Positions 12,745 to 37,919 are shown, numbered from the stretch's first letter. The stretch is DNA of 64,000 bases from an uncultured Eubacteriales bacterium (GCA_964624145.1 CAZUXT010000009.1:12269-76268), one strand, 5' to 3'. The notes: a model not told the origin generated them from the letters alone. Made by a program: numbers and translations.

Positions 12745-12942
12745 TTTGTTTCAGTAACTCCTTAGATGATTATAAATACAATTTATCAAAAACCCTGATT
12801 GAAATGAAGCGGCAATTTCAAGGGATTGCCCCTTTTGTCAGCCATCACGCCCATAAAAAAACAGAAGGTTATTGAATGGATTCTTTCAGTTTGTTCTGAT
12901 ATTATCTGGTTTTGCCATAATGATACATAGAGACCTTAGTTG

Positions 12943-13101
12943 ATGGGTATTCTTTTTAGCGGAGTGGCTGGTATTATGGTCTACATAGGTTTGGATGAGC
13001 TGCTGCCTACCAGCAGGGCTTACGGCAAGGGGCATGACAGTATTTTAGGCTTGGTGAGCGGAATGCTGGTCATGGCCTTGAGCCTGCTGTTGATGAGATA
13101 G
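12943..13101 (+). pseudogene. zupT: 3' remnant of a ZIP-family zinc transporter (last two TM helices only)
   Basis: Manual translation [52 protein letters not shown] matches the ZupT C-terminus; in-frame TAG at 12937 upstream; rest of gene absent. Confidence 0.8.
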
Positions 13102-13142
13102 TACATTTGTCTCATTTTTGATAATTAGTATGTTCGTCCTAT
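13099..13142 (+). promoter_or_regulatory. Conserved motif copy A (TAGTACATTTGTCTCATTT, 13099-13117) plus degenerate second repeat (TAGTATGTTCGTCCTAT, 13126-13142)
   Basis: 17/19 identical to each of the copies at 31786-31804 (-) and 37866-37884 (+). Confidence 0.75.
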
Positions 13143-13209
13143 AGAAAGGGCTGTCTTTTCTGTGGTAAAAATGTTTTCTGAAGAAAAATCAACACGAGGA
13201 GACTGAAAA

Positions 13210-13269
13210 ATGAGAAAAAAAAATCAGTTTATGCTGGATTATCTCAGGGAGCTGGGCAACGATCAATAG
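13210..13269 (+). CDS. 19-aa small ORF MRKKNQFMLDYLRELGNDQ, in frame with the downstream protease
   Basis: GAGGAG RBS at about 13196-13201; TAG at 13267-13269 is immediately followed by the GTG at 13270 in the same frame. Confidence 0.45.
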   Translation: MRKKNQFMLDYLRELGNDQ

Positions 13270-14337
13270 GTGACGGGACGGATGAAAAAAATAAAAATAA
13301 AGCGGGTCTTTGTTTTCCTTTTCTTTACTTTTCTCTTATCTTGGGGTTTTGACTGGTTGGTCATAGGCCTTGGAGGATCCGGCGCTTTCCGCAGCCTGAG
13401 CATGAGTCCATGGGGTATGCTTGTTCCTGCTCTGGTCGCCATTGTTCTCCAGATGTTTTTCTATAAAGACAGCCCTATATATTATCAGACCTATAAAGAA
13501 AAGCCGCGCTGGATCTTTTTAGGTTTCATGATCCTTACTGTAGTTTATGGGATTCTGACACTTCTTGCAGTATTTAACCCGGGATCCGGACAGATCTTCC
13601 AGGGTCTGGGAGCCCTCCTGTTTACGCTTTGGATTTTAGGGGTGTTTTTTATTCGCGGTCAAAGCAGTGAGGGGGCATTTGAACGGGCCGGATTGAAGCT
13701 GGGAAATGTGAAGATAGCGCAGCGTTTTATAGGGGGTATCCTGCTGTTTTTTCTCCTGCAGGCTGGTTTTAATCTCATTTTCAAGCTGGGTCCTTTTGTG
13801 GGCAGGATTGAACGCATATACGGCCTGCCCATCCCCTCATCTTTATATGTTCCGGCCCTGATCGTTCTATTTGTTCTGGTTGCTGTTATCGGAGTGCCAT
13901 TAAGCGGAATAGCCGGGGTTTTCGGTGAAGAGTACGGCTGGCGCGGTTTTTTGCAGTCTGAATTAACCAAGCTCGGGAATCTCAAAGGGGTTCTGTTGGT
14001 TGGTTTGATCTGGGGAATTTGGCATTTTCCCATTATTTTAAGAGGCATCCATACCTATCCGCCGTCTGTTTTGGGTCTTTTTTTAGGGGTGATATTTTTT
14101 GTATTATGGGGAATCATTCAGGGTTATGCGGTGATCAAAACCGGAAGCATCTGGGTTGCTGCCTTTATGCACGGTCTGGTGAACAGTGTGTACGGTTTTA
14201 TGCTTTCGTATGTGGTGAGACCTGAAAACAGGGTTTTTTCTTTCGGACTGGGAATTTACGGCATAGTCTGTCTGCTGATTGTGGTGGGATGGATTCTCCG
14301 GGATCCGGTCTGGAAAAAAGAAAACAAAGGGATATAA
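13270..14337 (+). CDS. CPBP (CAAX/Abi) intramembrane glutamic protease
   Basis: GEEYGWRGF, WGIWHFP and FMHGLVN motifs; multi-TM; start may be GTG 13270 or ATG 13282. Confidence 0.93.
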   Translation: MTGRMKKIKIKRVFVFLFFTFLLSWGFDWLVIGLGGSGAFRSLSMSPWGMLVPALVAIVLQMFFYKDSPIYYQTYKEKPRWIFLGFMILTVVYGILTLLAVFNPGSGQIFQGLGALLFTLWILGVFFIRGQSSEGAFERAGLKLGNVKIAQRFIGGILLFFLLQAGFNLIFKLGPFVGRIERIYGLPIPSSLYVPALIVLFVLVAVIGVPLSGIAGVFGEEYGWRGFLQSELTKLGNLKGVLLVGLIWGIWHFPIILRGIHTYPPSVLGLFLGVIFFVLWGIIQGYAVIKTGSIWVAAFMHGLVNSVYGFMLSYVVRPENRVFSFGLGIYGIVCLLIVVGWILRDPVWKKENKGI

Positions 14338-14403
14338 CCACATATATTTCTGCTCTGCAACTTTTTTTCTTAACCGCTTTTTAACAAATCTTTTACATCC
14401 TCC

Positions 14404-14421
14404 TGACAACTTAGTGTGTCA
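14404..14421. promoter_or_regulatory. TGACA-N8-TGTCA palindrome upstream of the epimerase/SDR pair
   Basis: Inverted repeat 60-78 bp upstream of ATG 14482; regulator unknown. Confidence 0.35.
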
Positions 14422-14481
14422 ACCCTCCTAGATTAAGTGTAGGTACCTGAAAAAGGGAAAAAATCTTAGGAGGTGTGTGAA

Positions 14482-15495
14482 ATGTCAGGAACAAAGGTAT
14501 TTGTTACCGGGGCAGATGGTCTTTTAGGAAGCCATCTCGTCAGAGAGCTTTTAAAAAAGGGGTTTTCGGTCAAAGCGCTCATTCATCCGAAAAGCACATC
14601 CCGGAGCTTGGAGGGATTGGATATTGAAACCGTTAAAGGCGATCTTTTAAACGGAGGCAGCTCCCTTGCCGGGGCGCTCTATGGATGCCGCTATCTCTTC
14701 CACTGTGCGGCAATGACGGATATTTGGGGTGATCCGGATTTAATCTGGAAGATTAATTTCGACGGGACCCGAAAGATATTGGATGCCTCTCTTAAGGCTA
14801 AGATCGAGCGTGTGGTCTATGTGGGGTCAGCCAGTTCCTATCAGTTCGGCACCTATGAGAACCCCGGGGACGAACAGGCTCCCTTTCCCAATGCTTATAG
14901 AGGCGTTGCCTATATGGAATCAAAGTACAAGGCATCGGGATTGGTCCGAAGTTATGTGAGAAAATACGACTTGGATGCTGTGATCGTTGCTCCCACCTTT
15001 ATGTTTGGAGCCTATGATTCAAGGCCCAGTTCCGGAGAGCTTATCCGGCAGTATATCAGCAGGGATATCCGGATTGTGCCTCCAGGCGGAAGGAATTTCG
15101 TCAATGCCAGAGATGCGGCCAAAGCCATGGTCTCCTCACTTTTTAATGGGAGGACAGGACAAAGCTATATTTTGGGAGGTTTGAATATGAGCTACTTTGA
15201 TTTTTTCTCTACCGTATTCCGGATTGCGGAGAAAAAACCTCCCCGCCTCGTTATTCCAAAGGTTCTCATGCGTTTCGGAGGGTTGTTTGGTTCTTTATCC
15301 GGAAAGATATCCAAAAGAAAACCGGTTCTTGAGGAGAGACTAGCCAAGTTTTCCTGTATACGCGCCTACTACAGTTCAGCGAAAGCCAATCAGGAATTGA
15401 ACATGCAGGAGACCAATATCGAGACAACCATTTCAGAATCCATACAGAGTCTTCAAGATTATGGATTTCTTAACGGTAATGGGAGGGAGTTGTGA
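14482..15495 (+). CDS. NAD-dependent epimerase/dehydratase (HpnA/dihydroflavonol reductase-like extended SDR)
   Basis: VTGADGLLG Rossmann motif, FHCAA, YMESK; AGGAGG RBS before ATG 14482. Confidence 0.92.
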   Translation: MSGTKVFVTGADGLLGSHLVRELLKKGFSVKALIHPKSTSRSLEGLDIETVKGDLLNGGSSLAGALYGCRYLFHCAAMTDIWGDPDLIWKINFDGTRKILDASLKAKIERVVYVGSASSYQFGTYENPGDEQAPFPNAYRGVAYMESKYKASGLVRSYVRKYDLDAVIVAPTFMFGAYDSRPSSGELIRQYISRDIRIVPPGGRNFVNARDAAKAMVSSLFNGRTGQSYILGGLNMSYFDFFSTVFRIAEKKPPRLVIPKVLMRFGGLFGSLSGKISKRKPVLEERLAKFSCIRAYYSSAKANQELNMQETNIETTISESIQSLQDYGFLNGNGREL

Positions 15496-16310
15496 GTGCA
15501 TTCAGCAACAAAGTAGCGGTCGTGAGTGGTTCGAGCCGGGGTGTCGGATTTGCATTGGCCAGAGCTTTAGTAGAGAAAGGGGCCAGGGTCGTGATCAATG
15601 CAAGAGGAGGGAGGCGTTTGGAACAGTCGAAATCAAAGCTTTTAAAAATGGGAGGAGACGTAGAAGCCGTGTGCGGAGATGTAGGCGTCTGGGAGGATGC
15701 GCAAAGGATCGTTCAAACAGCCATCGCTAAATACGGACAGCTCGATATTTTGATCAACAATGCCGGTGTATCCATGCGCGGCCGTTTTGACCGGCTTTCC
15801 TACGAAGTCTGCAGGCAGCTGGTGGATACGAATTTGATGGGAGGCGTATTTCTCACAAAAGCAGCCATCGATTCTATCATCCAATCCAAAGGACAGATTG
15901 TATTTATATCCTCTATTTCCGGTTTGTTTGGCCTTCCTCAGGCCTCTCTCTACTGTGCATGTAAAGGAGCTCTGACCTATTTTTGTGGTTCACTGCGTAT
16001 GGAGCTCGCTTCTTACGGGGTGCATATAGGAGTGATCTATCTTGGATTTACGGAGCACGACCCTGAAAAAAGGATTTTAGCGGCAAATGGCTTCCTGGTG
16101 CCTTCGAATCGGCCGGAACATCATACACAAAAACAGGCAGCCGGTATAATACTCAAGGCAATGGAAAAGCGAAAAAAGAAAATTGTCATGACGCCCTTGG
16201 GAAAATTTGGGTGGATCGCTCACCGGATTTCTCCTGCTCTGTCCGAAAAAATCATCCTTAAAGCGCAGTCGTGTAAATGGAAGGCCTATAAACAATTTAT
16301 GGGCTCGTAG
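15492..16310 (+). CDS. Classical short-chain dehydrogenase/reductase
   Basis: SGSSRGVG, NNAG, YCACK catalytic motif; GTG start overlaps the upstream stop. Confidence 0.93.
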   Translation: MSAFSNKVAVVSGSSRGVGFALARALVEKGARVVINARGGRRLEQSKSKLLKMGGDVEAVCGDVGVWEDAQRIVQTAIAKYGQLDILINNAGVSMRGRFDRLSYEVCRQLVDTNLMGGVFLTKAAIDSIIQSKGQIVFISSISGLFGLPQASLYCACKGALTYFCGSLRMELASYGVHIGVIYLGFTEHDPEKRILAANGFLVPSNRPEHHTQKQAAGIILKAMEKRKKKIVMTPLGKFGWIAHRISPALSEKIILKAQSCKWKAYKQFMGS

Positions 16311-16424
16311 CGGAAGAGGTTGAGACCTTATGGCTGTTAAGGGAAATTTCCTTTTTGTCAAAGAAACAGATAAGATGGAAAATATCATCATTGTCAAATA
16401 CCGATGTGAGAATGAGCATTTTTC

Positions 16425-16453
16425 TTGACACTTTTTTGATTTGCTGATATTCT
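16425..16453 (+). promoter_or_regulatory. Sigma70 promoter for the kinase gene
   Basis: TTGACA (16425) -17- TATTCT (16448), with TGn extended -10. Confidence 0.65.
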
Positions 16454-16472
16454 TCTCTTTCAGGGGATTGGG

Positions 16473-19400
16473 ATGGCCATCAAATGCCCGAAGTGTCATT
16501 ATGAGAATCCTGAGGGGACCTCTTTTTGCGGAAAATGCGGGACCCAGCTTGGTCCGGACGCAGGTCCTACCCAGACTATGGAAACCCCAACCACAGCGCT
16601 TCACATAGGCACCACATTTGCCAAAAGATATGAGATTCTGGAAGAACTGGGCAGAGGAGGCATGGGAGAGGTCTTTAGGGTCAAGGATGAAAAACTTGAT
16701 GAAGAGATGGCCCTCAAGGTCGTCAAACCCGAGATCGCTGCCCGCAAAGAGATCATTGAGCGCTTCAAGAATGAACTAAAGCTTTCCCGGAAGATCGCCC
16801 ACAGGCATGTCTGCCGGATGTATGACCTGAATGAAGAGGGAGAGACTCCTTACATCACTATGGAATATGTCAGAGGGGAGGACCTTAAAAGCCTGATCCG
16901 GAAAAAAGGGAAATTAAGTGAAAAGCAAGCGGTCGCTGTAGCCAAGCAGGTGTGTGAGGGGCTGGCTGAAGCCCATGAGCTGGGAGTGGTGCACAGGGAT
17001 CTCAAACCCCAGAACATCATGATCGATGAGAGGAACCATGCCAAGATCATGGATTTTGGCATCGCCCGCCTGGTTGAGGCTCCGGGAGTCACCCAGTCCG
17101 GGATGATGATCGGGACGCCGGATTACATGTCCCCTGAGCAGGCGGACGGAGAAGAGGCAGACCAGGTATCTGACATCTATTCTTTGGGAGTGATCCTCTA
17201 TGAGATGGTGACAGGGAGTGTTCCTTTTAAAGGGGATACAGCTTTGAGTGTGGCTCTCAAACACAAGACAAAGCTTCCTCCGAACCCAAAAAAGCTCAGT
17301 CCTGAGATTTCAGATGATCTGAGAAGGTTGATTCTGATCTGTATGGAGAAGGAACGGGAGAGGAGATATCAATCCGCTGAGGCCCTGCTGAACGATCTGC
17401 GTAATATCGAAGATGGACTGCCGCTCGGCACAAAGATAAAACCCCGTAGAAAGATGTTTTTGGCCCCCTTTCTCCGGAAGAGATTTCTCATTCCGGCTGT
17501 GGTTCTCACCCTTGCCGTTATCGCTGTCGTTATCTGGCAGCTTTTTCCAGGAAAAGGCGCGGCTGCTCCTCTGATCGAAAACTCTATAGCGGTCATAAGC
17601 TTCGAGAACCTGACCGGTGATGAAGCCAATGATATGCTGCAGCGGGCCATTCCCAATCTTGTGATCACCAATTTGGAAAACACCGGACTGCTTCATGTGG
17701 CCACCTGGGAACGCCTGCAGGATCTGATGAAACAGGTGGGCAGAGAGAATGAGGAAACCATTGATAAAGACCTGGGATTCGAGCTCTGCCGCAGGGAAGG
17801 CATCGAATCCATTGTGCTGGGCAGTGTGATGAAGGTGGGAGATGTATTCGCAACCGATGTCAAGGTCTTCGATGTGGCAACCAAAGAACTCATCAAAAGC
17901 GCCAGTTCTCAGGGCGAGGGAATCGACAGCATCATCAACACCCAGATCAGTGAACTCAGCAGGGAGATCGCCCTGGGAGTCGGTATCACCAGGCAGGAGA
18001 TAGCCTCAGCCGACCTTGATGTCTCCGAGTATACCACCACATCCATGGAGGCTTACAGCTATTTTATCAAAGGAAGAGAGGATTGGTACAATCAATATAC
18101 AAAGGATGCCATAACCCGTCTCGAGAAAGCTGTGGAGCTCGATCCCAATTTTGCTGTGGCTTATTTGTATCTCGGATGGTCATACGGTCTGATTCAAGAT
18201 TATAAAAAACAAAGAGAAAACTATGAAAAGGCTAAAGAACTTTCGGAAACGATTATCCTTACAGAAAAAGAAAAGCTTATGATCGATACGCTATTTGCCG
18301 AGTCTGAAGAGAAGTATTTGGAGATTTTGAACACCATTGTTGCAAAATACCCAAGAGACAAATGGGCGCATCTGGAGTTGAGCAAGCATTACAGAAAAAA
18401 TGATATATACTCCGAAGTCATCAAACATTCAGAAATCGTGTTGGCTCTCGATCCTTCCTGGGGAGATGCGTATGAGGAGCTGGCCTTTGCCTATGCGAAC
18501 ACAGGAGATAATGAAAAGGCTCTTGAATATCTGCAGAAGTATTCTGCTGCTATTCCCGGAGATCCCAGCGCGAATCTTACGACAGGCCATTTTTATGTAA
18601 AGATGGGAAAGATCGATGACGCCATTAGAAAATTCAAGGATGCTCTGGATATTAAACCTGACTTTAATATCGAGAATTTTATCGCTTATGCCTATGCCAT
18701 GAAAGAAGATTATACAGAGACTTTTCAATGGATGGACAAATACATTACAAACGCTCCCTCGGAAAGCAAAAAAGCTGATACAGGATATACTTTCAAGGGA
18801 TTTTATCACTACATACTTGGAAACTCCAAACAGGCTGTCGAATATCTGCAAAGAGCATTTGAAACCCCCTGGTTCGGTTTCAGTAGAAATCCTAGAGCTG
18901 AATATATCATGGCTGATGTCAATTATGAGAGCGGCAAATACGATTTATGCCGGGATCAATTCCAGCGTTGGCATGATCGGTGTCAGGAAAAAACTCCCCA
19001 AGAAGCAGTAGCTAGTCGGAGTTATAATTCCTTTTGGCTCCACTGTCCTTTGGGGGCAATTGAGTTAAAACGTGGTAACATCGATTCTGCCCGGTTACAA
19101 CTGAAAAAGATGGAAGACTTGTTGCCCAAAATAACGACCCCCCAAAAATGGGAAGGGTATTACTGGCTTCTCGGCCAGATATTGCTGGCTGAGAAATCAT
19201 ATGACGAAGCCATATCAGTTCTCAAAGACGCTCCACGTTTGAAAATGCCCTGGATATGGCTCACCCAGAATATCATCACTTATAACATGTTAAACATCGA
19301 TTCCTTTTTAGCACAGGCTTATAAGGAAAATGGGGATCTGGACCAGGCCATAGAGGTCTATGAGCGATTGACAGATCCCAATCCAGAAAACAGGGATGGA

Positions 19401-19577
19401 CGGCTCATCCGTCCTGAGAATTACTATTACCTAGGTGAACTGTACGAAAAAAAAGGGAAGAAAGCCAAAGCTATCGCCTCGTACGAAAAATTCCTCGATC
19501 TCTGGAAGGATGCTGACATGAGAACAGAAGAGCGCGAGAAGGCGAGACAAAGGCTGGCTGTGCTGAAGAATCTTTAA
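16473..19577 (+). CDS. Hanks-type Ser/Thr protein kinase: zinc ribbon, kinase, TM helix, TolB-N/FlgO-like domain, TPR array
   Basis: CPKC...CGKC; GRGGMG, ALK, HRDLKPQN, DFG, GTPDYMSPE; TM LIPAVVLTLAVIAVVIW; multiple TPRs. Confidence 0.96.
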   Translation: MAIKCPKCHYENPEGTSFCGKCGTQLGPDAGPTQTMETPTTALHIGTTFAKRYEILEELGRGGMGEVFRVKDEKLDEEMALKVVKPEIAARKEIIERFKNELKLSRKIAHRHVCRMYDLNEEGETPYITMEYVRGEDLKSLIRKKGKLSEKQAVAVAKQVCEGLAEAHELGVVHRDLKPQNIMIDERNHAKIMDFGIARLVEAPGVTQSGMMIGTPDYMSPEQADGEEADQVSDIYSLGVILYEMVTGSVPFKGDTALSVALKHKTKLPPNPKKLSPEISDDLRRLILICMEKERERRYQSAEALLNDLRNIEDGLPLGTKIKPRRKMFLAPFLRKRFLIPAVVLTLAVIAVVIWQLFPGKGAAAPLIENSIAVISFENLTGDEANDMLQRAIPNLVITNLENTGLLHVATWERLQDLMKQVGRENEETIDKDLGFELCRREGIESIVLGSVMKVGDVFATDVKVFDVATKELIKSASSQGEGIDSIINTQISELSREIALGVGITRQEIASADLDVSEYTTTSMEAYSYFIKGREDWYNQYTKDAITRLEKAVELDPNFAVAYLYLGWSYGLIQDYKKQRENYEKAKELSETIILTEKEKLMIDTLFAESEEKYLEILNTIVAKYPRDKWAHLELSKHYRKNDIYSEVIKHSEIVLALDPSWGDAYEELAFAYANTGDNEKALEYLQKYSAAIPGDPSANLTTGHFYVKMGKIDDAIRKFKDALDIKPDFNIENFIAYAYAMKEDYTETFQWMDKYITNAPSESKKADTGYTFKGFYHYILGNSKQAVEYLQRAFETPWFGFSRNPRAEYIMADVNYESGKYDLCRDQFQRWHDRCQEKTPQEAVASRSYNSFWLHCPLGAIELKRGNIDSARLQLKKMEDLLPKITTPQKWEGYYWLLGQILLAEKSYDEAISVLKDAPRLKMPWIWLTQNIITYNMLNIDSFLAQAYKENGDLDQAIEVYERLTDPNPENRDGRLIRPENYYYLGELYEKKGKKAKAIASYEKFLDLWKDADMRTEEREKARQRLAVLKNL

Positions 19578-19618
19578 AAACGAGGGGAGAAAGAAGAGAG
19601 GCACATCAATAGAAGAAT

Positions 19619-20827
19619 CTATTTTTTTCCTTTTTTGAGGAGGGAGGAGGCAGCGATGTTGGCGATTTTGCTGCGCAGAGAGACCACAGAGCCCTGGTCA
19701 TCCGGGTGCACTCTGTTCGTAAGAAGAATGATATAAATTTGAGTTTCAGGGTCTATCCACAGGGACGTTCCGGTGTAACCTGTATGGCCGAAAGAGGAAG
19801 CGCCGAAAAGATCCCCCCCAGTAGAAGAATAAGCGGAATCCAGGTCCCAGCCGTATCCGCGTCCTGCGAAGGGGGCCTGACTGCAGATCTCAGTCATCCT
19901 CTCTACAGCCAGGGGGCTTAAGATCCTGGTTTCCCTGTATGTGCCTTTGTTGAGAAGCATCCAGGCAAAGATGGCCAGATCATCGGCTGTGGAAAAAAGC
20001 CCTGCGTTACCGGACACTCCTCCCAAAAGCCGTGCCAGAGGGTCATGCACCACTCCTTTGAGATAGAGCTCCTTAGTGACTTCAGTGGGAACACACTTTT
20101 CTTTCAGTTCCTCGGGAGGATTGTAGAGAGTGTGATGCATGCCCAGAGGGAGAAATATGTTTTCTCTCGAGAACTCGGCCAAATTTTGTCCGGTTATCTG
20201 TTTGATAATAGAGGAGAGACATATGAATCCCAGACAGGAATAGTGAAATTCTTCTCCTGGAGGATTTGTCTTGTCCAGGGCAGCGATATAGGCGATCAGA
20301 TTCTCAAGCGTGCAGAAGCTTCCAAAATGGGCAGTGATGTTTTCATCCTGTATATAAGGAGGAAGTCCTGATGTGTGGGTCAGAAGATGCCATATTCGGG
20401 CGTCTTCTCCGATTTCACCCAGTTCATCCGTGAAGGGTTTGAATCCAGGGATATAGTCCTTCACTTTCTCCCTCAAATGAAGCTTGCCTCTCTCAACCAG
20501 AATCATGATGGAAGTCGCTGTGGCCACAGGCTTGGTGAGCGAGGCCAGGTCAAAGAGCATGCCCTGTTCCATAGGTCGGGGCTCGGGCACCAGTTGGGAA
20601 TTTCCATAGGTGTTGCGGAAGATGACCTTGTCCTTTCTTCCCACCAGCACCACAGCGCCGGGAATATCTTTGTTTTCAATGGATAGCTGGATAATGTCAT
20701 TAATCCTCAAGAGGTGTTCACTGGATATTTCCTCTTTTCCCGGTTCAAGCTCAATGGATCGGTGGGTCCGGCACTGAGAGAAAAGCAAGAAAAGACAGAT
20801 AAGAAAGAAAAAGCTCAATTTACGCAT
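19619..20827 (-). CDS. Serine hydrolase lipoprotein (beta-lactamase/AmiE-like family)
   Basis: Lipobox FSQC; ASLTK (SxxK), YSC, HTGYTG. Confidence 0.9.
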   Translation of the reverse strand: MRKLSFFFLICLFLLFSQCRTHRSIELEPGKEEISSEHLLRINDIIQLSIENKDIPGAVVLVGRKDKVIFRNTYGNSQLVPEPRPMEQGMLFDLASLTKPVATATSIMILVERGKLHLREKVKDYIPGFKPFTDELGEIGEDARIWHLLTHTSGLPPYIQDENITAHFGSFCTLENLIAYIAALDKTNPPGEEFHYSCLGFICLSSIIKQITGQNLAEFSRENIFLPLGMHHTLYNPPEELKEKCVPTEVTKELYLKGVVHDPLARLLGGVSGNAGLFSTADDLAIFAWMLLNKGTYRETRILSPLAVERMTEICSQAPFAGRGYGWDLDSAYSSTGGDLFGASSFGHTGYTGTSLWIDPETQIYIILLTNRVHPDDQGSVVSLRSKIANIAASSLLKKGKK

Positions 20828-21090
20828 GGTTTCCTTTTGAAAGTATATTATAAGAATTCATGACTGGATAGAAAAGAAATAATTATAAGGACATTACTAT
20901 TTTCTTGCGGATAGAACAGGTTGATTATTGCCCCCATATATGATATAAAATGAGACACTTTTTAAAGGAAGATCAGGAAGGAACACATAGATATTTCCCC
21001 TTAGGGAGGAGAATTCCGTTAAAGAGGCAGGGAAATCCTTCTGCTCTTGAATCTTTCCATATAAAGAGCAGAACCGAGTGGAGTGAATGA

Positions 21091-23531: not shown

Positions 23532-23544
23532 TAGTATCTCATTC

Positions 23545-23569
23545 CTGAACAGAAGCGAAGGCTGTTCAG
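23545..23569. terminator. Hairpin between convergent genes
   Basis: CTGAACAG-N9-CTGTTCAG perfect 8-bp stem; no clear U-tract. Confidence 0.45.
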
Positions 23570-23572
23570 AGG

Positions 23573-25711: not shown

Positions 25712-25720
25712 AGCTGCGCC

Positions 25721-27817: not shown

Positions 27818-27839
27818 TTCGTTTATAATACATGTTATC

Positions 27840-27869
27840 TTGACAAAAGAAAACGAAAAGCCTTAACAT
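27840..27869 (+). promoter_or_regulatory. Candidate sigma70 promoter for the aldehyde dehydrogenase
   Basis: TTGACA (27840) -18- TAACAT (27864). Confidence 0.5.
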
Positions 27870-27936
27870 TTTGCCTTAAAAAAGGACGCACAAAATAGTA
27901 ATACTGGTGTCGAAAAATCTTAAAGGGAAGGTTTAG

Positions 27937-29583: not shown

Positions 29584-29644
29584 ACAACCGGGCTTAAACA
29601 ATATCCCACGCTGAATGCAGGGGATTTGAAGATCAAAGAATAAT

Positions 29645-31534
29645 CTATTGAAGCAGGCGGTAAATCAGGATTCTGTTGTCAATAAAGGTGGGAATGACAA
29701 TAAGGTTTTTATGGGGAATAATGAGAAAATTAGCCATTGGAATTCCTTTATTCGTGGAATCCAGCATTTTTGTAATCACACCTTCTGCAGTAATTCTGTA
29801 CAGCCTTCCCTGGTTATGGGAAATCCATATATGACCTTGACCATCTGCTTCAATTCCATCGATCAAACCATCGGAAAACCGGGCTATCCGTTTAATTTTT
29901 TTGGTTTTCAAGTCAATGCTTTTAACTGAGGAGTCCCCGTTACATCCCACAATCAACTGTCCCCTCACGATCTCAATTCCATTTGGCCTAACCACCTGAC
30001 CTGAATCCAGCCATTCTTGAAGAGACCCTCTGTCTTGGGAGACTTGAAATATTTGGCTGGCTCGGAAATCAGACACAAATATATTTCCCTGTTCGTCAAT
30101 TGTGATGTCATTTAAACTAACCGCTTTTTTATAGACATGCCTCACTATTTGTTCGGTATCATCAGTCTTTATCTGCACCAGGGCATTTGGTTCCACAATC
30201 CACAAAGTTTCTCCATCCACAGCCATGCCCATGGGATTATTCAGTCCTTTCAGCCAATGAGGATCGACTTTTTTCTGGCTTAAGTCAAGCCGGCTGACAG
30301 ACTGCAAGTTTCGACCCCCACTCGGACGGTAACCATCATAATTGGAGATGTAAACACAATCATGGATACGGTCATAACACGCGGTTTCCGGTATGGCAAA
30401 GAGACTCGGTGATTCCCAGACTCTTTCCAGAGAGCCATGAACCATTTCCTGGTCCGCTCTTTGCAGAATAAATCCCCATCCGCCAAATACATCTGCCAAA
30501 ACTATGAAAATTTCGTTATTTCCTTTCCTTAACGGAAGATAGAGAGTATCAAACAAACCTACAGTTCCTAAAAATCCTGAATCCCGGCTGGTGTACCCGC
30601 TGTTCCCGCTGAATATGGGTTGTCCATTGCAAAAAACGAAAATCACATCACTATAGCCCAGGTTGAAAGGCTTGACTCCATCTTGATCTGCTTTGAAGTT
30701 GGTTTTGGCATAGATCAGATAGGGTCTGTTCTGGGCCGTGACTTCCTTGGCGACATCCACTATTCCCGATGGACTGGATTTAACGGATTTCCAGTTGATC
30801 TTTTCGAACATTTTTTCTGAAGGATACCTATCCAGAGGACAATGGTCATAATAGTCCAAAGGTTGAGAGATATCCCAGTCGGTCATAATATTGGAAGGTG
30901 TGACAAGATAAGGAAGAGGGGGAAAGTCTGTTGGTTCCTGGAGAGTGTATGAGAAATTAGAAAAATAGGCAGAGCCGTCTTCCGGGCTTAAGAGCCCTAT
31001 TTTTCCTTTACTTAACCCATGCTCCAGATGAAAAATTTCCAGGTTCGGCTTATCTGAATTCCCGATAAAAACCTGGCCTCGATCTCCCATGACTTCCAGG
31101 CGAATATGAATCCATTCTCCTTCTGGTATGGATAAAGGAGCGGTGTATCCTGTTCCTGTGTATAACTGCCATCCGTCAATCCCGTTTATAGTAGGCACAT
31201 ACTGAAGGGCATCCTCATAGAGTCCGGCCCGGTGGGGGCGGATATAAACTCTCTCCCGGTTAAACTGGGATTGCATGCGGAAAATAATTCCAGGGTATGA
31301 GCGCCTGCCATCAACAGCCACATCCACTTCAATAATCCCGTCTTCGAATTCGATTCCTTTCAATAAAGCTGTCCCCATAAAAGCTTTTCTGCCCAGGTGA
31401 TCGACTATTTTTCCTGAAAAAATCTGCCAGTTTTCTGAATTAAAATCATTATTTCCTGTTTCTGCTTGGACTGTGGTCAAAAAAATGATCAATAAGCACA
31501 GAATCAAACATTTAGTCTTCATATGAATAGCCAT
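29645..31534 (-). CDS. Exported modular protein: ConA-like/DUF1080 domain, beta-sandwich linker domain, SMP-30/gluconolactonase-like propeller
   Basis: AGGAGG RBS; signal peptide; WIHIRLEV...GKIGL...YFSNF; C-terminal PET, LNNPMG, LNDITID, PNGI, IDGI blades. Confidence 0.75.
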   Translation of the reverse strand: MAIHMKTKCLILCLLIIFLTTVQAETGNNDFNSENWQIFSGKIVDHLGRKAFMGTALLKGIEFEDGIIEVDVAVDGRRSYPGIIFRMQSQFNRERVYIRPHRAGLYEDALQYVPTINGIDGWQLYTGTGYTAPLSIPEGEWIHIRLEVMGDRGQVFIGNSDKPNLEIFHLEHGLSKGKIGLLSPEDGSAYFSNFSYTLQEPTDFPPLPYLVTPSNIMTDWDISQPLDYYDHCPLDRYPSEKMFEKINWKSVKSSPSGIVDVAKEVTAQNRPYLIYAKTNFKADQDGVKPFNLGYSDVIFVFCNGQPIFSGNSGYTSRDSGFLGTVGLFDTLYLPLRKGNNEIFIVLADVFGGWGFILQRADQEMVHGSLERVWESPSLFAIPETACYDRIHDCVYISNYDGYRPSGGRNLQSVSRLDLSQKKVDPHWLKGLNNPMGMAVDGETLWIVEPNALVQIKTDDTEQIVRHVYKKAVSLNDITIDEQGNIFVSDFRASQIFQVSQDRGSLQEWLDSGQVVRPNGIEIVRGQLIVGCNGDSSVKSIDLKTKKIKRIARFSDGLIDGIEADGQGHIWISHNQGRLYRITAEGVITKMLDSTNKGIPMANFLIIPHKNLIVIPTFIDNRILIYRLLQ

Positions 31535-31734
31535 TTGAATCCTCCTTTTTTATTCATGATCATTATTTTTTGTTGCTTCTCAGGCACAGTGAGATTTTTT
31601 TTATATCCGAAGCTGCAGCACCTGAAAACAAACAATATGATTATAATGACAACAATAATAAATGTCATGATATCAAGTAAAGAGTCTCGTGTCTTATTTT
31701 TGAACGGATTATACTTTTTTTTCCCCACAGCCAT
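31519..31734 (-). CDS. Possible small single-TM protein (71 aa)
   Basis: Hydrophobic stretch IMTFIIVVIIIILFVF; overlaps the next gene by 16 nt; no RBS. Confidence 0.4.
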   Translation of the reverse strand: MAVGKKKYNPFKNKTRDSLLDIMTFIIVVIIIILFVFRCCSFGYKKNLTVPEKQQKIMIMNKKGGFKWLFI

Positions 31735-31761
31735 AGATTAGGGCATTTATTTTAATTTCCA

Positions 31762-31804
31762 ATAGGACAAACATCACTAATACTGAAATAAGACAAAAGT
31801 ACTA
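31762..31804 (-). promoter_or_regulatory. Conserved motif copy B (TAGTACTTTTGTCTTATTT, 31804-31786) plus second repeat (TAGTGATGTTTGTCCTAT, 31779-31762)
   Basis: Near-identical to copies A and C; lies in the divergent intergenic region of the propeller-LuxR gene. Confidence 0.75.
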
Positions 31805-31869
31805 AATGCTGGAAAAACATACTTTTATGAGTATAATGATTCGATAACCGTTTTATTTATTCAAAACAA

Positions 31870-34593
31870 ATGAAACCCAACAACTCATATCTTGTGAGAC
31901 AAAAAAAAAGAATGGCCTTGCACCTGGTCGCCTTATGTATGATTCTTCCACCGCTGTTATCCGGTCCTGCCCAAAACAATTTGAAATTCAATCACTTATC
32001 TGTTGAAGAAGGGCTCTCAAATAGCCAGGTGAACTGCATGCTTCAGGACAGCAGGGGATTCTTTTGGATCGGAACCCAGGATGGACTGAACCGCTTTGAT
32101 GGCCATTCCTTTGTGGTTTTTCAGAAACAACAGAGTAATCCCAATTCAATTTCCGGAAACGGAGTCTGGGCCTTATGTGAAGACAGAAAGGGAAATATAT
32201 GGATAGGCACTTATGGACAGGGTTTAAATAAACTGAATACCCGGACCGGACAGTTTACTCATTATAAAAATGTCAAAGGAGATCCGCATTCATTATGTGA
32301 TAACCGGGTTGTCACTCTGTTTGAAGATTCGCATGAAAGGATATGGGTGGGAACAGATCAGGGTGGTTTCTGCTGGTTCGAACCAAAAGAGGCAATTTTC
32401 CAACAACCCGAAGAAATAAAGAACAGAAAAAACAATAGAGGAAGCCGGATCTTCTGTTTTCTTGAAGATGATCCGGGGGAGATCTGGATTGGTTCGGACT
32501 CAGGGATTTTAAGATATGAGCCTGAAACCGGGATATTCTCAGATGTCTTTGACTCGGCTCATAAAGAATCCTTTTCTTTAAACAGGGGGGTTTTTGATAT
32601 CTTAAAGGAAGAAAACGGCCGGATATGGTTAGGTCTCCGGCATGGTATCCTGGAATTCGATCCGGAGAAAAAGAGGGGTTTCCTGTATCCCTTTGATCCT
32701 GATTATAAAACTGACTCCAGCGTTGATCTTTGGGAGGATTCATCCGGAATTATTTGGTCAGTCCGCGGAAGCGCGGGGTTAGAACGGGTGGATCGTGAAA
32801 ATAAAAATCTAATTCACTATCCGATAGATCCCTATGATCCCTATGGTTTGAGCACTGATGAGCTCTCATGTCTATTTGAGGATAAATCAGGTTTGTTATG
32901 GATAGGAACCAATGACGGGATATTCCAGTTGAATGAAAGGCGGTTCTCAATCACTCATTACTACCAGAAATTACAAGACAAAATAAGCTTGAGTGATAAC
33001 AGAGTGGCTGCTATTCTTGAAGATAGTTCTGGTTTTCTCTGGTTCGGAACATCAGAAGGATTGAGCCAGTTTGACCGCAAATCCAACAAATTTATTCACT
33101 TTCAGCAAGGATTCCCCAATTCCATCAGCCAGAACCAGGTGTGGGCTTTGGAGGAAGATATCAACAAAAGATTGTGGATAGGCACTTTTGGTGAAGGAGT
33201 GTATCTCCTAGACCTCAAAACAGGGAAACTCACACATTTTCGAAATAGGCCTAACGATCCAAAGAGTTTGAGTCATGATGTGGCCTTAGAAATATATAGG
33301 GATCACAAAAGAAGGATGTGGGTGGGAACAGACGGAGGGGGACTGAATTTGTATGACAAAGAAGAAAACGGCTTTATCCGTTTTCAGCATGATCCAAGAA
33401 ATCCTTCTTCCATCGGCAGTGATATTGTCATGGACATCATGCAGGATCAAAAGGGCTATTATTGGGTAGCAACGTGGGGTGGAGGACTGAACCGGTTTGA
33501 TGGACAAACCAACAATTTTACGCATTTCAATCATGATTCTGAAGACCCAGATTCACTGAGCTTTGATATTGTCCTTTGTGTTATAGAAGATAAGAAAGGA
33601 AATATCTGGGCAGGAACGTATGGCGGTGGGTTGAACAGGTTGAATCCCGAATCCGAAACATTCAATCACTTTACAGTGGAGGACGGCCTTCCCAATAATA
33701 ATGTTTTGGGAATACTGGAAGACTCTCAGGGTGTTCTGTGGTTCAGCACTTATTCGGGGTTGGCTCGATTTAATCCGGATAGTCAGGCTTGTATTACCTT
33801 TAATCAACAGGATGGAATTCTAAGTAACGAGTTCAATATCGGAGCCTATTATAAGACGCGTCAAGGAGAGCTTTTTTTTGGTGGGAAAAAGGGTGTCTCG
33901 GCTTTCTTCCCTGAAGATTTAAAGAAGAGTACTTTTCTACATCCTCTTCGTTTTAGCTCTCTTGAGATATTTGGGAAAGAGGGTGGAAAAGAATACTTTA
34001 TTTCAGAGAAAACAAAAGTAAAAATTTCTTATAAAGATTCTTTCCAGTTGAGTTTCTCCTCTATGGATTACAACAATTCAGACAAAAATCAATACGCTTA
34101 TAAGATGGGAGGATACCAGGCTGATTGGATTGAACTGGGGAATAAAAACACCCTCACTTTTGCCAATTTAAAACCTGGTTCTTATAAATTAAGAGTGAAA
34201 GGCACAAACAGTGACGGAGTATGGAATCCGGAGGAGGCTTCTCTTGCCATTCATGTCTCGCCGCCTTTCTGGGGTACCTGGTGGTTTCGTGCTTTCATTG
34301 TTCTTATCGGAGCGGCCTTGTTAATTAACTGGCACCAAAACCGGATGCAGAGGTTAACGAGACGTTTGAAAACTGAAGCCCAGGTAGAACGCTTGTGTTT
34401 GAAATATAAAATATCTGAAAGGGAGATCGAGATCATAAAGTTATTATTAAGGGGCTTTAATAGGGCTCAGGTTGCGGATAAACTCTTTATTTCAGAATTA
34501 ACGGTGAGAAACCATATCTATTCTATATATAAAAAACTGGGCATAAAGAATCGAGCCCAGTTGTTGGAGCTCTTCCGCTATATGGACCGTTAG
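31870..34593 (+). CDS. Transmembrane sensor-regulator: two-component-type beta-propeller repeats, Y_Y_Y domain, TM helix, LuxR-type HTH
   Basis: About 14 Reg_prop repeats (D.kG.lWiGT.g.GL); YAYKMGG...LKPGSYKLRVKG...PPFWGTWWF; C-terminal ISERE...RAQVADKLFISELTVRNHIYSIYKKLGIKNR; no H-box, ATPase or receiver domain. Confidence 0.92.
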   Translation: MKPNNSYLVRQKKRMALHLVALCMILPPLLSGPAQNNLKFNHLSVEEGLSNSQVNCMLQDSRGFFWIGTQDGLNRFDGHSFVVFQKQQSNPNSISGNGVWALCEDRKGNIWIGTYGQGLNKLNTRTGQFTHYKNVKGDPHSLCDNRVVTLFEDSHERIWVGTDQGGFCWFEPKEAIFQQPEEIKNRKNNRGSRIFCFLEDDPGEIWIGSDSGILRYEPETGIFSDVFDSAHKESFSLNRGVFDILKEENGRIWLGLRHGILEFDPEKKRGFLYPFDPDYKTDSSVDLWEDSSGIIWSVRGSAGLERVDRENKNLIHYPIDPYDPYGLSTDELSCLFEDKSGLLWIGTNDGIFQLNERRFSITHYYQKLQDKISLSDNRVAAILEDSSGFLWFGTSEGLSQFDRKSNKFIHFQQGFPNSISQNQVWALEEDINKRLWIGTFGEGVYLLDLKTGKLTHFRNRPNDPKSLSHDVALEIYRDHKRRMWVGTDGGGLNLYDKEENGFIRFQHDPRNPSSIGSDIVMDIMQDQKGYYWVATWGGGLNRFDGQTNNFTHFNHDSEDPDSLSFDIVLCVIEDKKGNIWAGTYGGGLNRLNPESETFNHFTVEDGLPNNNVLGILEDSQGVLWFSTYSGLARFNPDSQACITFNQQDGILSNEFNIGAYYKTRQGELFFGGKKGVSAFFPEDLKKSTFLHPLRFSSLEIFGKEGGKEYFISEKTKVKISYKDSFQLSFSSMDYNNSDKNQYAYKMGGYQADWIELGNKNTLTFANLKPGSYKLRVKGTNSDGVWNPEEASLAIHVSPPFWGTWWFRAFIVLIGAALLINWHQNRMQRLTRRLKTEAQVERLCLKYKISEREIEIIKLLLRGFNRAQVADKLFISELTVRNHIYSIYKKLGIKNRAQLLELFRYMDR

Positions 34594-34642
34594 AGTTTCT
34601 ATTGGTGTTTGTTTTCAGAGTCTTTATAGGTCCATAGATTCT

Positions 34643-35266
34643 TCAGTAATTTTTTGATTTGAATAGCTTAGGAAAATATTTCCCTGTTTTCTTGATGTAA
34701 TTTTGATAGTCTTCACCGAACCTCTCCAGCAGTTGTTTTTCTTCATAGGGGGACCTAACAAGGCAGACAATAACAGAAACAGCTATTAAGAGGATTCCAA
34801 GAGCCCAGTTTGAGGTGATTAAAAAAGCGGAGACCATGAACGGAATGAAAGCCACATTTATGGGATGCCTTAGGTAGCTGTAGACTCCTGTGGTTATGAG
34901 TGAATGGTTTTTATGGAATCCTCTGGTTCCATGATATTCGGTTTTGATTGAACGGAAAGCCCACCAGAAAAAACCCATTGAAAAGCCTAGAAGTATAAGC
35001 CCTATCCAGTTTATCAGCAGGGGAAAGTCCAGATATGCCCAGGAAAAATAAGTTTTTGGAAGCAGCCACTCTATAAGGAACACATAACCGGGGAAGCCCA
35101 GGATGCCCCGAATCCATAATAATGATTTTAATTCGGTTTTGTGGGCATTGAATTCATCAAAAGAGCACTGGTGTTTATTTTGAGCTCTTTTTGTCGCATT
35201 CTTAGTGAATACAATGATGAGAGTAAAGGCGCTAATAAAAACGGCTTTAAATATCCATATAACCAT
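34643..35266 (-). CDS. Isoprenylcysteine carboxyl methyltransferase (ICMT/PEMT) family membrane protein
   Basis: LITTGVYSYLRHP, EEKQLLERFGEDY...TGKYFP. Confidence 0.9.
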   Translation of the reverse strand: MVIWIFKAVFISAFTLIIVFTKNATKRAQNKHQCSFDEFNAHKTELKSLLWIRGILGFPGYVFLIEWLLPKTYFSWAYLDFPLLINWIGLILLGFSMGFFWWAFRSIKTEYHGTRGFHKNHSLITTGVYSYLRHPINVAFIPFMVSAFLITSNWALGILLIAVSVIVCLVRSPYEEKQLLERFGEDYQNYIKKTGKYFPKLFKSKNY

Positions 35267-35301
35267 GATTCTCTTCCTTTCTTTTTATTGATCGTTTCAT
35301 T

Positions 35302-36360
35302 TTAGATGCTATTAAAATTTAAAAAAGACTCTTTTATCTTTTCATGAAAATCAAAGAGAAAGTCTGATCTCATCCAGTAAATATCCGACTTTCCATTTTG
35401 TGGTTCTTTATGGATTCTCCGCAGAAGATCCAGGGAAAGCTGATCATGGCTGAGCTGGTCTGAGAATTTATTTCTTGAGGCTCCAAAAAAGAAATATTTT
35501 CCATCAGGCGACACATACTGAGAGGAGGCATTTTGCTCAGGTTCGTTAACTTTTTCACCAAGATTAATGCCTTCTGACCAGTTGTCATTTTTATCTCGAA
35601 AAAAGATATAGTGATCAGATAATCCGGGTGATACGGAATCATCTCGGCCTGCTACACAGGCTATCAAGAAACGTTCCTCTGGATCAATAAAGGCATTGTA
35701 TGGATTTCCTTTTTCGTTGATTTCCTTTGGCAGTAATTCTGGTTCCCTATATTTACCGTTGATATATTCAGATCGGAAGATGTTTGTTTTTCCTGAATTT
35801 TTATCAGAACGTGTGAAATAGAGAGTTCTTTGATGAGTAACTGAGGGATAGTATTCGTTATTGTCCGTATTAATCGGAAAACCGATATTATAAACTTTTC
35901 CCCAGGTGCCGTTATCAAGCCGGTCGACTGCCCAGATATTTTGATAGAACCAACCGGGTTTGGGTTCTTTTCCTTCAGGAGGTCGGGTGCAGAGAAAAAG
36001 AAGCCTTTTTCCGTCCGGAGTGACATGTGGTTCCAGATAGAGACACCTTGGGTCCCTGGCAAATGAAGCCACTTCTAAAGGACTCCATGTGCTGTCTTTA
36101 TATTGAGTGTAAATAATGGTGGCATAGAATCCGTAAGCCACTCCGAAATACATCTCCTTTCCGTCCGGTGTCATAGTCACGTCTCTCTCAAAGCAACCTG
36201 TTGAAACAGTCCCGGGCTTAAAAATTTCCGGATCATCTCCGGGTGTTGCCTGTCCAAAATATTCATTTTCAACTAAGGGAATGGATTCCTTTTTTTCACA
36301 ACTCATAAAAATAAAAATGAAGAGGATGATTAAAAGCAATGTGATGACGACTCTGGTCAT
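35302..36360 (-). CDS. PD40/TolB-like beta-propeller lipoprotein
   Basis: Lipobox FMSC; repeats MTPDGKEMYF, VTPDGKRLLF, VSPDGKYFFF; start MTRVV with AAGGAG RBS. Confidence 0.85.
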   Translation of the reverse strand: MTRVVITLLLIILFIFIFMSCEKKESIPLVENEYFGQATPGDDPEIFKPGTVSTGCFERDVTMTPDGKEMYFGVAYGFYATIIYTQYKDSTWSPLEVASFARDPRCLYLEPHVTPDGKRLLFLCTRPPEGKEPKPGWFYQNIWAVDRLDNGTWGKVYNIGFPINTDNNEYYPSVTHQRTLYFTRSDKNSGKTNIFRSEYINGKYREPELLPKEINEKGNPYNAFIDPEERFLIACVAGRDDSVSPGLSDHYIFFRDKNDNWSEGINLGEKVNEPEQNASSQYVSPDGKYFFFGASRNKFSDQLSHDQLSLDLLRRIHKEPQNGKSDIYWMRSDFLFDFHEKIKESFLNFNSI

Positions 36361-36433
36361 GAGTGTTTTCTCCTTATCTGTAATGATTCCAGATTTATCA
36401 AGAATCAAGTTTTCTAAAATAGAAAAACTTGGT

Positions 36434-37816
36434 TTAATGGATCACCTTCTCAAGGACCACGCTGCGTCTTAAAAACTGGAGTTCGATTTGATCCACGACA
36501 CCCATATCGCTCCTGTAAAACGAAACTTTCCAAGGATCATGATCACAGTAAAACGTATCTTTGCCTATGGGGTATATTTTATTCAGGCTGTTATCATCAA
36601 GCATTAGACATCCGTCAGAGATAAAAATGTTGACTCCAGCCCTATCGGGAGCTTCTTTCCAGGAATAAAACCCCACATATTCGTCATATAGACTTGGATC
36701 CATGGGAATGGGCTCAGGCCTTACCCAATCATATTCCATAGGTGTTTTCCCGTATTGGTCCTTTGCGCTCATGGGCACACCTTTTTGTTTGAGCATTTCA
36801 TAGAGATGGCGGTGACCGCATTTGGCTGCTAAATGCAGGGCATTCCATCCTTCTTTGGTTGTTTCTTTGGGGCTGGCACCTTTTTCAAATAAAAAGAGTA
36901 CGGCCTCTTTATTGCCGCGCTGCACAGCTCTCAGCATGGGTGTGTACTCACCAAAAATATCCTTCACTTTTAAGCAGGGGGCTCCTCCCTTAGAGAACAA
37001 GAGTTCCAGCATATCTGGACGGTCGTGCTGGCAGACGCAGTGCATGGATGTGGTACTGGCACGGGTTATGATATTAACATCAGCTCCTAATTTGATAAGA
37101 TACTGAAAAATATCCCATTTGCTGTAAGCTGCAGACAAAGTGAGAGGAGTGTGTCCGACCAGACTGTCTTTGGCATTCAATAGGTTTTGGTGGGAAGATA
37201 GAATGGATTTGACATTTTCGAGATTTCCGTCCCGGACCGCTTTATGGATATCAGGATAAGTGGCTTCATTTATTTCAATCTTCTTCAGCGCATACTTAAG
37301 TATTGGATCCTCAGCAGGAGGAAGGTCAGAGGCACAGGGCTGAATGATATGTTCAGGAATGACACCTCTACCGAAGTGGGGAGGAGATTTGCTGTCCAGC
37401 AGGACATAACCCAGAGGGATGCTTATCCTGTGTGAATTGAGAAAATGGGAGTGATTGAGAGATGGTTTGATTTCAGTATGACCGCAGCGGATAGAGCTCA
37501 CAAATGGTGCCAGAAGGCGGTAAAATTGCATTTCTGTCATTTCACGGTCAAGTTCTTTTTTAATTGCATTGGTTTGATCATTAAATCCATCCGGGCTTAT
37601 GTAAGCATAGAGATGACCGTGAGCCTGTTTTAAGGTGGTGACAAGTGCATTGAAATCTTGCTCAAGTTCTGTCGGAGTGTATTTTTTTTCCGGATTATAG
37701 GGATGGGAGATATTTTCATTTGAACAATTAAAGAAAAGAACAATCAATACACAAAGAATCATGAAAAGTATTTTTCTGCGTTGCATTTCAAAACCTACGG
37801 TATTTTTTTGGATCAT
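36434..37816 (-). CDS. Lipoprotein: S41 peptidase N- and C-terminal remnants, ankyrin repeats, DUF3471-like domain
   Basis: Lipobox FFNC; S41-like YTPTELEQDF...CGHT joined to GRGVIPEH...DPILKYALK; ankyrins GHTPL, TPMLRAV, GWNALHLAA, GKTP; start may be 37786. Confidence 0.8.
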   Translation of the reverse strand: MIQKNTVGFEMQRRKILFMILCVLIVLFFNCSNENISHPYNPEKKYTPTELEQDFNALVTTLKQAHGHLYAYISPDGFNDQTNAIKKELDREMTEMQFYRLLAPFVSSIRCGHTEIKPSLNHSHFLNSHRISIPLGYVLLDSKSPPHFGRGVIPEHIIQPCASDLPPAEDPILKYALKKIEINEATYPDIHKAVRDGNLENVKSILSSHQNLLNAKDSLVGHTPLTLSAAYSKWDIFQYLIKLGADVNIITRASTTSMHCVCQHDRPDMLELLFSKGGAPCLKVKDIFGEYTPMLRAVQRGNKEAVLFLFEKGASPKETTKEGWNALHLAAKCGHRHLYEMLKQKGVPMSAKDQYGKTPMEYDWVRPEPIPMDPSLYDEYVGFYSWKEAPDRAGVNIFISDGCLMLDDNSLNKIYPIGKDTFYCDHDPWKVSFYRSDMGVVDQIELQFLRRSVVLEKVIH

Positions 37817-37865
37817 TCATGGTAACTGAATGTATAAAATAGGGGAGTTAAAGGAGTCATGTAAA

Positions 37866-37919
37866 TAGTACTTTTGTCTCAATTTGAAATTGAAGGTTCA
37901 AATTGAAAAAGATTATGAT
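37866..37919 (+). promoter_or_regulatory. Conserved motif copy C (TAGTACTTTTGTCTCAATT, 37866-37884) followed by a candidate promoter
   Basis: Motif ends 5 bp upstream of TTGAAG (37890) -18- TATGAT (37914). Confidence 0.72.

Follow-up and report, generated by a model that had tools for sequence, protein, structure and literature searches.

The 64,000 bp stretch of DNA described here (GCA_964624145.1, CAZUXT010000009.1:12269–76268; hereafter the window), from an assembly named as an uncultured Eubacteriales bacterium, encodes a 907-residue putative membrane-spanning regulator with a propeller-type sensor and a LuxR-type DNA-binding domain, and it contains three copies of a 19 bp motif (sites A, B and C; Table 1), one of which is beside the regulator gene. 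An earlier note on this DNA had proposed that the motif is an activator site for the regulator. The coordinates and strands that it gave for the three copies are correct, each copy differs from the consensus by one base, and the second related repeats it described at sites A and B are real, with start-to-start distances of 27 bp and 26 bp respectively. At three or fewer mismatches the consensus 19-mer has three matches in the window compared with 0.03 expected, a count that is not attained in any of 100 dinucleotide-preserving shuffles. All three sites are intergenic, which is unlikely to occur by chance (about 2e-4) because approximately 94% of the window is coding and only 6% is non-coding. 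A position weight matrix (PWM) was built from all of the box copies found, including those in related loci, and in the window it identifies five boxes of at least 14.7 bits outside of open reading frames (ORFs), at sites A, B and C; the sole further match (14.7 bits) is inside an ORF at 42302. The distances reported to downstream ATG codons also hold (111 bp from A to the ATG at 13210, 110 bp from C to the ATG at 37976, and 65 bp from B to the regulator ATG at 31870), but the ATG at 13210 does not stand as a gene start; it opens an ORF of just 19 codons, and the syntenic locus L206 does not retain this frame (related loci are designated by L numbers).

The regulator has only two hydrophobic segments, at residues 14–34 (a signal or transmembrane [TM] segment) and 800–820 (TM), so it is predicted to span the membrane once with about 85 residues in the cytoplasm, most of which form the helix-turn-helix (HTH). 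Pfam matches are to Reg_prop repeats (E 3e-61), Y_Y_Y (residues 733–796, E 1e-18) and the GerE HTH (residues 849–899, E 8e-15), and no Pfam matches to HisKA, HATPase_c or receiver domains were found. The sensor matches the periplasmic domains of hybrid two-component systems (HTCS), including BT4663 (4a2l, E 2e-111), 3v9f (E 4e-93) and 3ott (E 5e-40), and the last 60 residues are homologous to VpsT, GerE, DevR and VraR, with HTH matches to GerE (1fse, E 2e-8) and DevR (1zlj and 1zlk, E 5e-5 to 9e-5). Among orthologues the C-terminal 100 residues are 72–90% identical, compared with 54–72% for the whole protein, and a conserved C-terminus under a diverging sensor fits with a DNA target that has not changed. 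Apart from the regulator gene, the window has one DNA-binding gene, which codes for a TetR protein and is located beside its own efflux operon.

Table 1. Motif copies, predicted promoters and associated genes in the window
Feature	Coordinates	Strand	Details
Site A box 1	13099..13117	+	TAGTACATTTGTCTCAT + TT; conserved in position in L206 and L105
Site A box 2	13126..13142	+	TAGTATGTTCGTCCTAT; 27 bp after box 1; PWM score 19.7 bits
Predicted site A target promoter	13142..13172	+	−35-like TAGAAA abutting box 2, then −10-like (T)AAAAAT
CPBP/Rce1-like membrane protease	13282–14337	+	First gene downstream of site A
NAD-dependent epimerase	14473–15495	+	Downstream of site A
Short-chain dehydrogenase (SDR)	15492–16310	+	Downstream of site A
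629-aa exported protein	29645..31534	−	Second gene downstream of site B
Small TM peptide	31519..31734	−	First ORF downstream of site B; overlaps the 5′ end of the 629-aa gene
Predicted site B target promoter	31735..31762	−	−35-like TTGGAA (31762–31757), 16-nt spacer, −10-like TAATCT (31740–31735)
Site B box 2	31762..31778	−	AGTGATGTTTGTCCTAT; 26 bp from box 1 when in register, with an indel of 1 nt
Site B box 1	31786..31804	−	TAGTACTTTTGTCTTAT + TT; PWM and consensus match
Predicted regulator-gene promoter (sigma-70-like)	31810..31837	+	TGGAAA-16-TATAAT; −35 is 5 nt from site B box 1
Propeller-LuxR regulator, 907 aa	31870..34593	+	Membrane-spanning one-component architecture
Divergent operon	34643..37816	−	Ankyrin-repeat (Ank) lipoprotein, PD40 lipoprotein, PEMT/ICMT membrane methyltransferase
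Candidate divergent Ank operon promoter	37836..37865	−	TTTACA-18-TATTTT; −35 abuts box C
Site C	37866..37884	+	TAGTACTTTTGTCTCAA + TT; single box, no box 2
Candidate 920-aa gene promoter	37890..37919	+	TTGAAG-18-TATGAT (promoter scan)
Genes after site C	37976..42089	+	Exported 920-aa DJ-1/PfpI-domain protein; pyridoxal phosphate-dependent decarboxylase

The two-box element adjoins the regulator gene in seven lineages, with regulators 54–86% identical to that of the window, and in all seven it is in the same orientation with box 1 on the side of the regulator gene, while the flanking DNA has diverged. Regulator orthologues in a large protein collection are 72, 71, 56 and 54% identical, and further loci with both the element and the regulator are L205, a metagenome contig with an orthologous N-terminus, and L210, the closest relative. 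Alignment of six orthologous regulator-adjacent intergenic regions (from lineages with regulators that are 54–72% identical) has a mean column identity of 53%, and the only long invariant blocks are the 13-nt segment TAGTACTTTTGTC in box 1, and CCTATTGG in box 2. In the seventh lineage, L210, there are two substitutions in box 1 and box 2 is intact. The motif is a conserved promoter element that is non-random and linked to the regulator gene, and the possibility raised in the earlier note that it might be scattered without regard to promoters can be set aside, as it is promoter-associated and under purifying selection, and is not a dispersed repeat. We scanned about 200 kb of this lineage, in which there are one to three sites per 20–64 kb, and all of the copies are intergenic and directed towards a gene, with the exception of site A in L105. 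Identical proteins allowed the window to be extended by approximately 10 kb on its right side and 4 kb on its left, and these extensions contain no further copies of the motif.

There are two features of the arrangement that might be expected if the copies were ends or recombination sites of mobile or invertible DNA. First, sites A and B face each other, forming inverted repeats that flank 18.7 kb, and second, in L199 a perfect 17 bp inverted repeat surrounds 251 bp. We consider this explanation to be very improbable. Neither the window nor the related loci were found to encode a transposase, integrase or invertase, the order of the genes between the sites is ordinary conserved chromosomal synteny, and the three contigs of the L199 lineage are all in one orientation. 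Moreover, a scan of viral contigs for the two-box pattern gives no matches, and the footprint is confined to the boxes.

When the two-box pattern is sought in 185,579 species genomes, it is found in L105, a metagenome-assembled genome (MAG) of the Aminicenantes, and in a Bacteroidales MAG (L209) that is likely a chance match and in which the second block does not repeat the first. The same scan of metagenome contigs gives five loci. Among the matches listed for the 19-mer alone in the species genomes there are single, scattered occurrences in unrelated taxa, at approximately the level expected by chance. The best relative of the regulator among these genomes is 39% identical, and the motif is absent from 80 loci encoding propeller-LuxR homologues with 30–39% identity; it is also absent beside a 48% identical homologue of the 629-aa protein in another organism. 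A direct-repeat search upstream of the 30–39% homologues was crude and uninformative, as the positive control was also missed. We note that ~240 nt upstream of a 37%-identical homologue in Aminicenantes JdFR-78 there are two segments 22 bp apart (L002 9750–9786), TAGTGACAAATTTTGTCA, which is a palindrome, and TAGTGACAGAAATTGT; this pair may represent a related operator with a different spacing.

Alignment of all of the copies defines the unit as a 16–17 bp pseudo-palindromic box, wAGKAC-wTTT-GKCCTAT, in which AGKAC and GKCCT form an imperfect palindrome around an oriented T-tract, with a core of GKAC-N4-GKCC. Full sites contain two boxes in direct repeat, spaced 26–27 bp from start to start. 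The two units hardly differ in L208 (TAGTACTTTTGTCC and AAGTACTTTTGTCC), and outside of L208 the best-kept half is the left one in box 1 (TAGTAC) and the right one in box 2 (GTCCTAT). The boxes have the inverted half-sites expected of a GerE operator, about 10 bp from centre to centre (AGKAC-N4-GKCCT), with the palindrome being imperfect, and most of them agree with GGAC-N4-GTCC at six or seven of the eight core positions. The DosR/DevR box, TTSGGGACTWWAGTCCCSAA, has this same GGAC-N4-GTCC half-site geometry (PMC2275270), and the likeness of the window core GKAC-N4-GKCC to it is a resemblance and not a test. A single box is of a size to accommodate one GerE/LuxR-type HTH dimer, and full sites would be occupied by two.

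Some pairs of boxes have the potential to base pair with each other, as with TGTCTCA and TGAGACA in the L199 Ank site and GTCCTT and AAGGAC in L202 and L203, and the conserved sequence could conceivably be a structured RNA, either a 5′ leader or a small RNA. However, RNAalifold analysis of 11 copies yields no consensus structure, there is no match in Rfam, and pairing of the boxes is not seen at sites A or B in the window. The apparent pairing arises because the boxes are pseudo-palindromes, and of the explanations we have considered an RNA is the least probable, to the point of being hardly credible.

The relationship of the boxes to putative promoter sequences is consistent among all of the two-box copies. 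In each of the twelve, the last base of box 2 is also the first base of a −35-like hexamer (TTGGAA, TTGGCA or TAGAAA), and a −10-like hexamer is present 16–19 nt beyond it, which puts the two boxes at about −43 (box 2) and −69.5 (box 1). Box 2 abutting a weak −35-like hexamer is the layout of an activator-dependent promoter. In LuxR-type class II activation the lux box is at −42.5 and overlaps the −35 element, and the proximal box in the window resembles it in overlapping the −35. By analogy, the proximal box would overlap a poor −35 in a class II layout, with the distal box bringing in a second dimer.

Two conserved blocks with a fixed spacing, positioned before genes for exported and membrane proteins, could alternatively be the −35 and −10 elements of promoters used by an alternative sigma factor, either of the extracytoplasmic function (ECF) type or another, and the GTC/CGTC-like cores resemble ECF −10 elements. 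This seems improbable on several counts, as box 2 repeats box 1 in degenerate form (and is nearly identical to it in L208), the 26–27 bp spacing compares with ~20 bp between the starts of the ECF −35 and −10 cores, and the invariant 13-nt core is longer than a sigma element. The single box at site C is also conserved, and no sigma or anti-sigma factor gene was found in the window. A promoter of the Bacteroidota type (−33 TTTG and −7 TAnnTTTG) was considered because of the sequence TACTTTTG in box 1, and was rejected. Conservation extends far beyond such elements, promoters in the window resemble those of sigma-70, and an Aminicenantes MAG is the nearest genome; the enrichment of Shine-Dalgarno sites in the window, where they precede 12 of 43 genes compared with a 10% background, also counts against it.

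The closest parallel in architecture is BguR of Formosa agariphila, described in 2026, which is a proven membrane-spanning one-component activator of a laminarin polysaccharide utilization locus (PUL), and for which a motif is predicted in the intergenic DNA that separates the regulator from its first target. Membrane-spanning one-component regulators that have HTCS-like sensors were recognized as a class in 2026 and have been reported as nearly restricted to the Bacteroidota and to beta-glucan PULs. The two proteins are alike in architecture, each having a signal peptide, a tandem beta-propeller of the HTCS-like type, Y_Y_Y, one TM segment, a short linker and a GerE HTH; they are similar in size (907 and 940 residues), and neither has phosphorelay domains. 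They are also alike in the position of a conserved motif, in the intergenic region between the regulator and its first known or putative target. There are clear differences, however, as the window regulator has no adjacent SusC/D genes, no adjacent glycoside hydrolase (GH) genes of families GH16, GH17, GH30 or GH144 and no PUL, and its putative targets are the small TM peptide, exported proteins and the CPBP protease. Moreover, BguR is from the Bacteroidota, whereas the present lineage probably is not, the nearest named genome being an Aminicenantes MAG and the promoters and Shine-Dalgarno sites being as described above. The window regulator shares the BguR architecture, but functionally it does not qualify as an orthologue of BguR. 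It represents a BguR-like architecture in a poorly known, uncultured lineage with targets that are not PULs.

Comparisons with other systems are similarly partial. The HTCS proteins of Bacteroides (BT4663, BT3049 and BT4673) have a homologous periplasmic sensor and signal by phosphorelay to an AraC-type output, whereas the window regulator has a GerE HTH and no kinase or receiver domain. Unlike GerE HTH regulators of the NarL/FixJ family that bind palindromes, such as DosR/DevR, and unlike LuxR, it is neither a soluble response regulator nor an autoinducer receptor, and its boxes depart from theirs in being imperfect, in having an oriented T-tract, and in forming direct repeats 26–27 bp apart. 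ToxR/TcpP and CadC combine a periplasmic sensor and a cytoplasmic DNA-binding domain in one membrane protein, and a small co-encoded membrane partner (ToxS or TcpH) is typical. The window regulator is like these, and like SusR, in having the sensor and the DNA-binding domain in one membrane protein. However, the domains of ToxR and CadC are winged helices at the N-terminus, and the GerE HTH of the window regulator is C-terminal.

We conclude that the boxes are very probably transcription factor binding sites of some kind, and we have moderate confidence in the more specific prediction, made from sequence, that they are operators of the adjacent propeller-LuxR regulator. The proposal in the earlier note that they are activator sites for this protein is strengthened by the conserved adjacency in seven lineages, the abutment of box 2 and a weak −35-like hexamer, and the BguR precedent; the binding and its sign are parts that we infer. 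The position of the boxes and the analogy to BguR suggest that the regulator would act as an activator and not as a repressor.

Several observations weigh against this reading. The 26–27 bp spacing corresponds to ~2.5 helical turns, such that the two boxes are on opposite faces of the DNA, a placement not usually associated with cooperative binding in tandem. The promoter assignments are weak because −10-like hexamers are easily found in AT-rich DNA, and the centre of site C is at about −52 relative to the 920-aa gene promoter, which is outside the layout in which a box is at the −35. Site A in L105 faces the 3′ end of a convergent gene and is without an obvious target, and the predicted regulon is drawn from only ~200 kb of the lineage. 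The best two-box copies of all (L207 1577–1621, −, and L208 2335–2379, +) belong to another lineage and are upstream of a gene for a 102-aa Fis-type (HTH_8-like) protein, and no LuxR gene was found within the 7.5 kb available; copies with no LuxR gene nearby fit with a regulon, yet they would also suit another binder. Finally, L199 and L212 encode a second GerE protein of 319 residues, and a degenerate copy of the element is upstream of its gene in L212.

These last two observations are those expected if the boxes were operators of a different factor in the lineage, for instance the GerE protein of 319 residues encoded in L199, the Fis-type HTH protein of L207 and L208, or a regulator that acts globally, with the propeller-LuxR gene being merely one of the targets. 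We regard this as unlikely, although it is the most substantial of the alternatives. The genes for the 319-aa GerE and HTH_8 proteins are absent from the window and its flanks, the propeller-LuxR gene is the one neighbour that recurs across the seven lineages, and the geometry of the box fits a GerE dimer. The degenerate copy in L212 (~5118–5162, −) consists of TAGGATTTTAGTCTCAT followed 27 nt on by TTGGTACTTTTATACTAAT, upstream of the 319-aa gene, whose product is GerE/sigma70_r4-like; it may hint at a regulatory cascade in this sister lineage.

If the boxes are indeed operators of the propeller-LuxR protein, a simple model is that the regulator senses a periplasmic ligand and activates its targets. 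Through site B it would activate the divergent operon of the small TM peptide and the 629-aa protein and would modulate its own promoter; through site A it would activate the CPBP, epimerase and SDR genes; and through site C it would activate the 920-aa DJ-1-domain gene, the divergent Ank-PD40-PEMT operon, or both. The regulator and ankyrin promoters are probably co-regulated, because box 1 touches the −35 in each. The candidate targets are all membrane or exported proteins, namely the small TM peptide, the 629-aa protein, CPBP, the 920-aa protein, the Ank and PD40 lipoproteins and PEMT/ICMT. A fuller proposal is that this would be the first prediction of an operator and regulon for a BguR-like regulator outside of the Bacteroidota, probably in the Aminicenantes, in which the HTCS-type sensor is wired to a small set of envelope proteins rather than to a PUL, the first target is a TM peptide that is translated from a probably leaderless mRNA and serves as a ToxS/TcpH-like feedback partner, and two GerE dimers 2.5 turns apart tether the promoters to the membrane. 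We advance this composite only tentatively and think it doubtful that all of its parts will hold. The regulon prediction is by standard comparative genomics, and there is no new kind of mechanism. The sharply defined candidate operator provides probes for how a membrane-tethered tail of ~85 residues recognizes DNA, as well as a way to define the regulon in MAGs.

At site B, the earlier note assigned the downstream DUF1080/SMP-30 gene as the target. This gene is downstream as described, although it is not the first one, as the small TM peptide precedes it. Its 629-aa product has weak, sub-threshold matches to the DUF1080/3-keto-disaccharide hydrolase and SMP-30/SGL propeller families. In five lineages (the window, L199, L201, L202 and L210) the ORF that comes first after site B encodes a small single-pass membrane peptide of 43–71 residues, with the conserved pattern ..K.R[DE]SLLDI.TFII...ILFVF.CCS (..RDSLLDI.TFII..ILFVFRCCS.. 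in the window), and it matches no Pfam family. In the window a GTG fits as the start codon, and the N-termini are then consistent across the lineages. The start codon is 6–7 nt past the −10-like hexamer in L199, L201, L210 and the window, and the mRNA may be leaderless, since the predicted transcription start is on or next to the start codon. By analogy with the co-encoded membrane proteins noted above, and as speculation, the peptide could be a partner of the membrane regulator.

The target of site C is less simply assigned. The candidate −35 that had been described just after the box was recovered by the promoter scan, and the 920-aa DJ-1 gene remains a candidate target. It does not stand as the sole target, because the candidate −35 of the divergent Ank-PD40-PEMT operon is directly next to box C, and this operon is an equally likely target. 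A segment of 23 identical nt is present at the orthologous place in L199, L204 and L212, upstream of the orthologous 920-aa gene, and the flanking sequences have diverged. In this sister lineage the Ank gene has a full two-box site of its own. The 17 bp inverted repeat in L199 is composed of this Ank-directed site and the C-type box (14330–14346 and 14598–14614, and the same in L204 and L212); the 251 bp segment that it encloses is missing from the window, and no recombinase gene was found nearby. Immediately after box C in the window there is a 9 bp inverted repeat, CAATTTGAA-N8-TTCAAATTG (37884–37906, +), which overlaps the candidate −35 and is not conserved in L199.

The predicted site A promoter would leave an untranslated leader of ~100 nt before the start of the CPBP gene, and the gene order CPBP-epimerase-SDR is common to the window and L206. 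Upstream of site A is a remnant of a ZupT/ZIP zinc transporter gene (12934–13101, +) that includes only codons 247–301; relative to the syntenic L206, ~775 bp have been deleted, among them the promoter and codons 1–246. Intact versions of the gene are present in L206 (301 aa) and in L105 (313 aa), and in all three loci the first three bases of site A are the TAG stop codon of ZupT. Further downstream (16473–19577, +), between the SDR gene and a beta-lactamase-family gene, the window encodes a Ser/Thr kinase of 1034 residues that has a zinc ribbon and tetratricopeptide repeats. In L206 the SDR and beta-lactamase-family genes are adjacent, and the kinase gene represents an insertion or deletion difference between the two.

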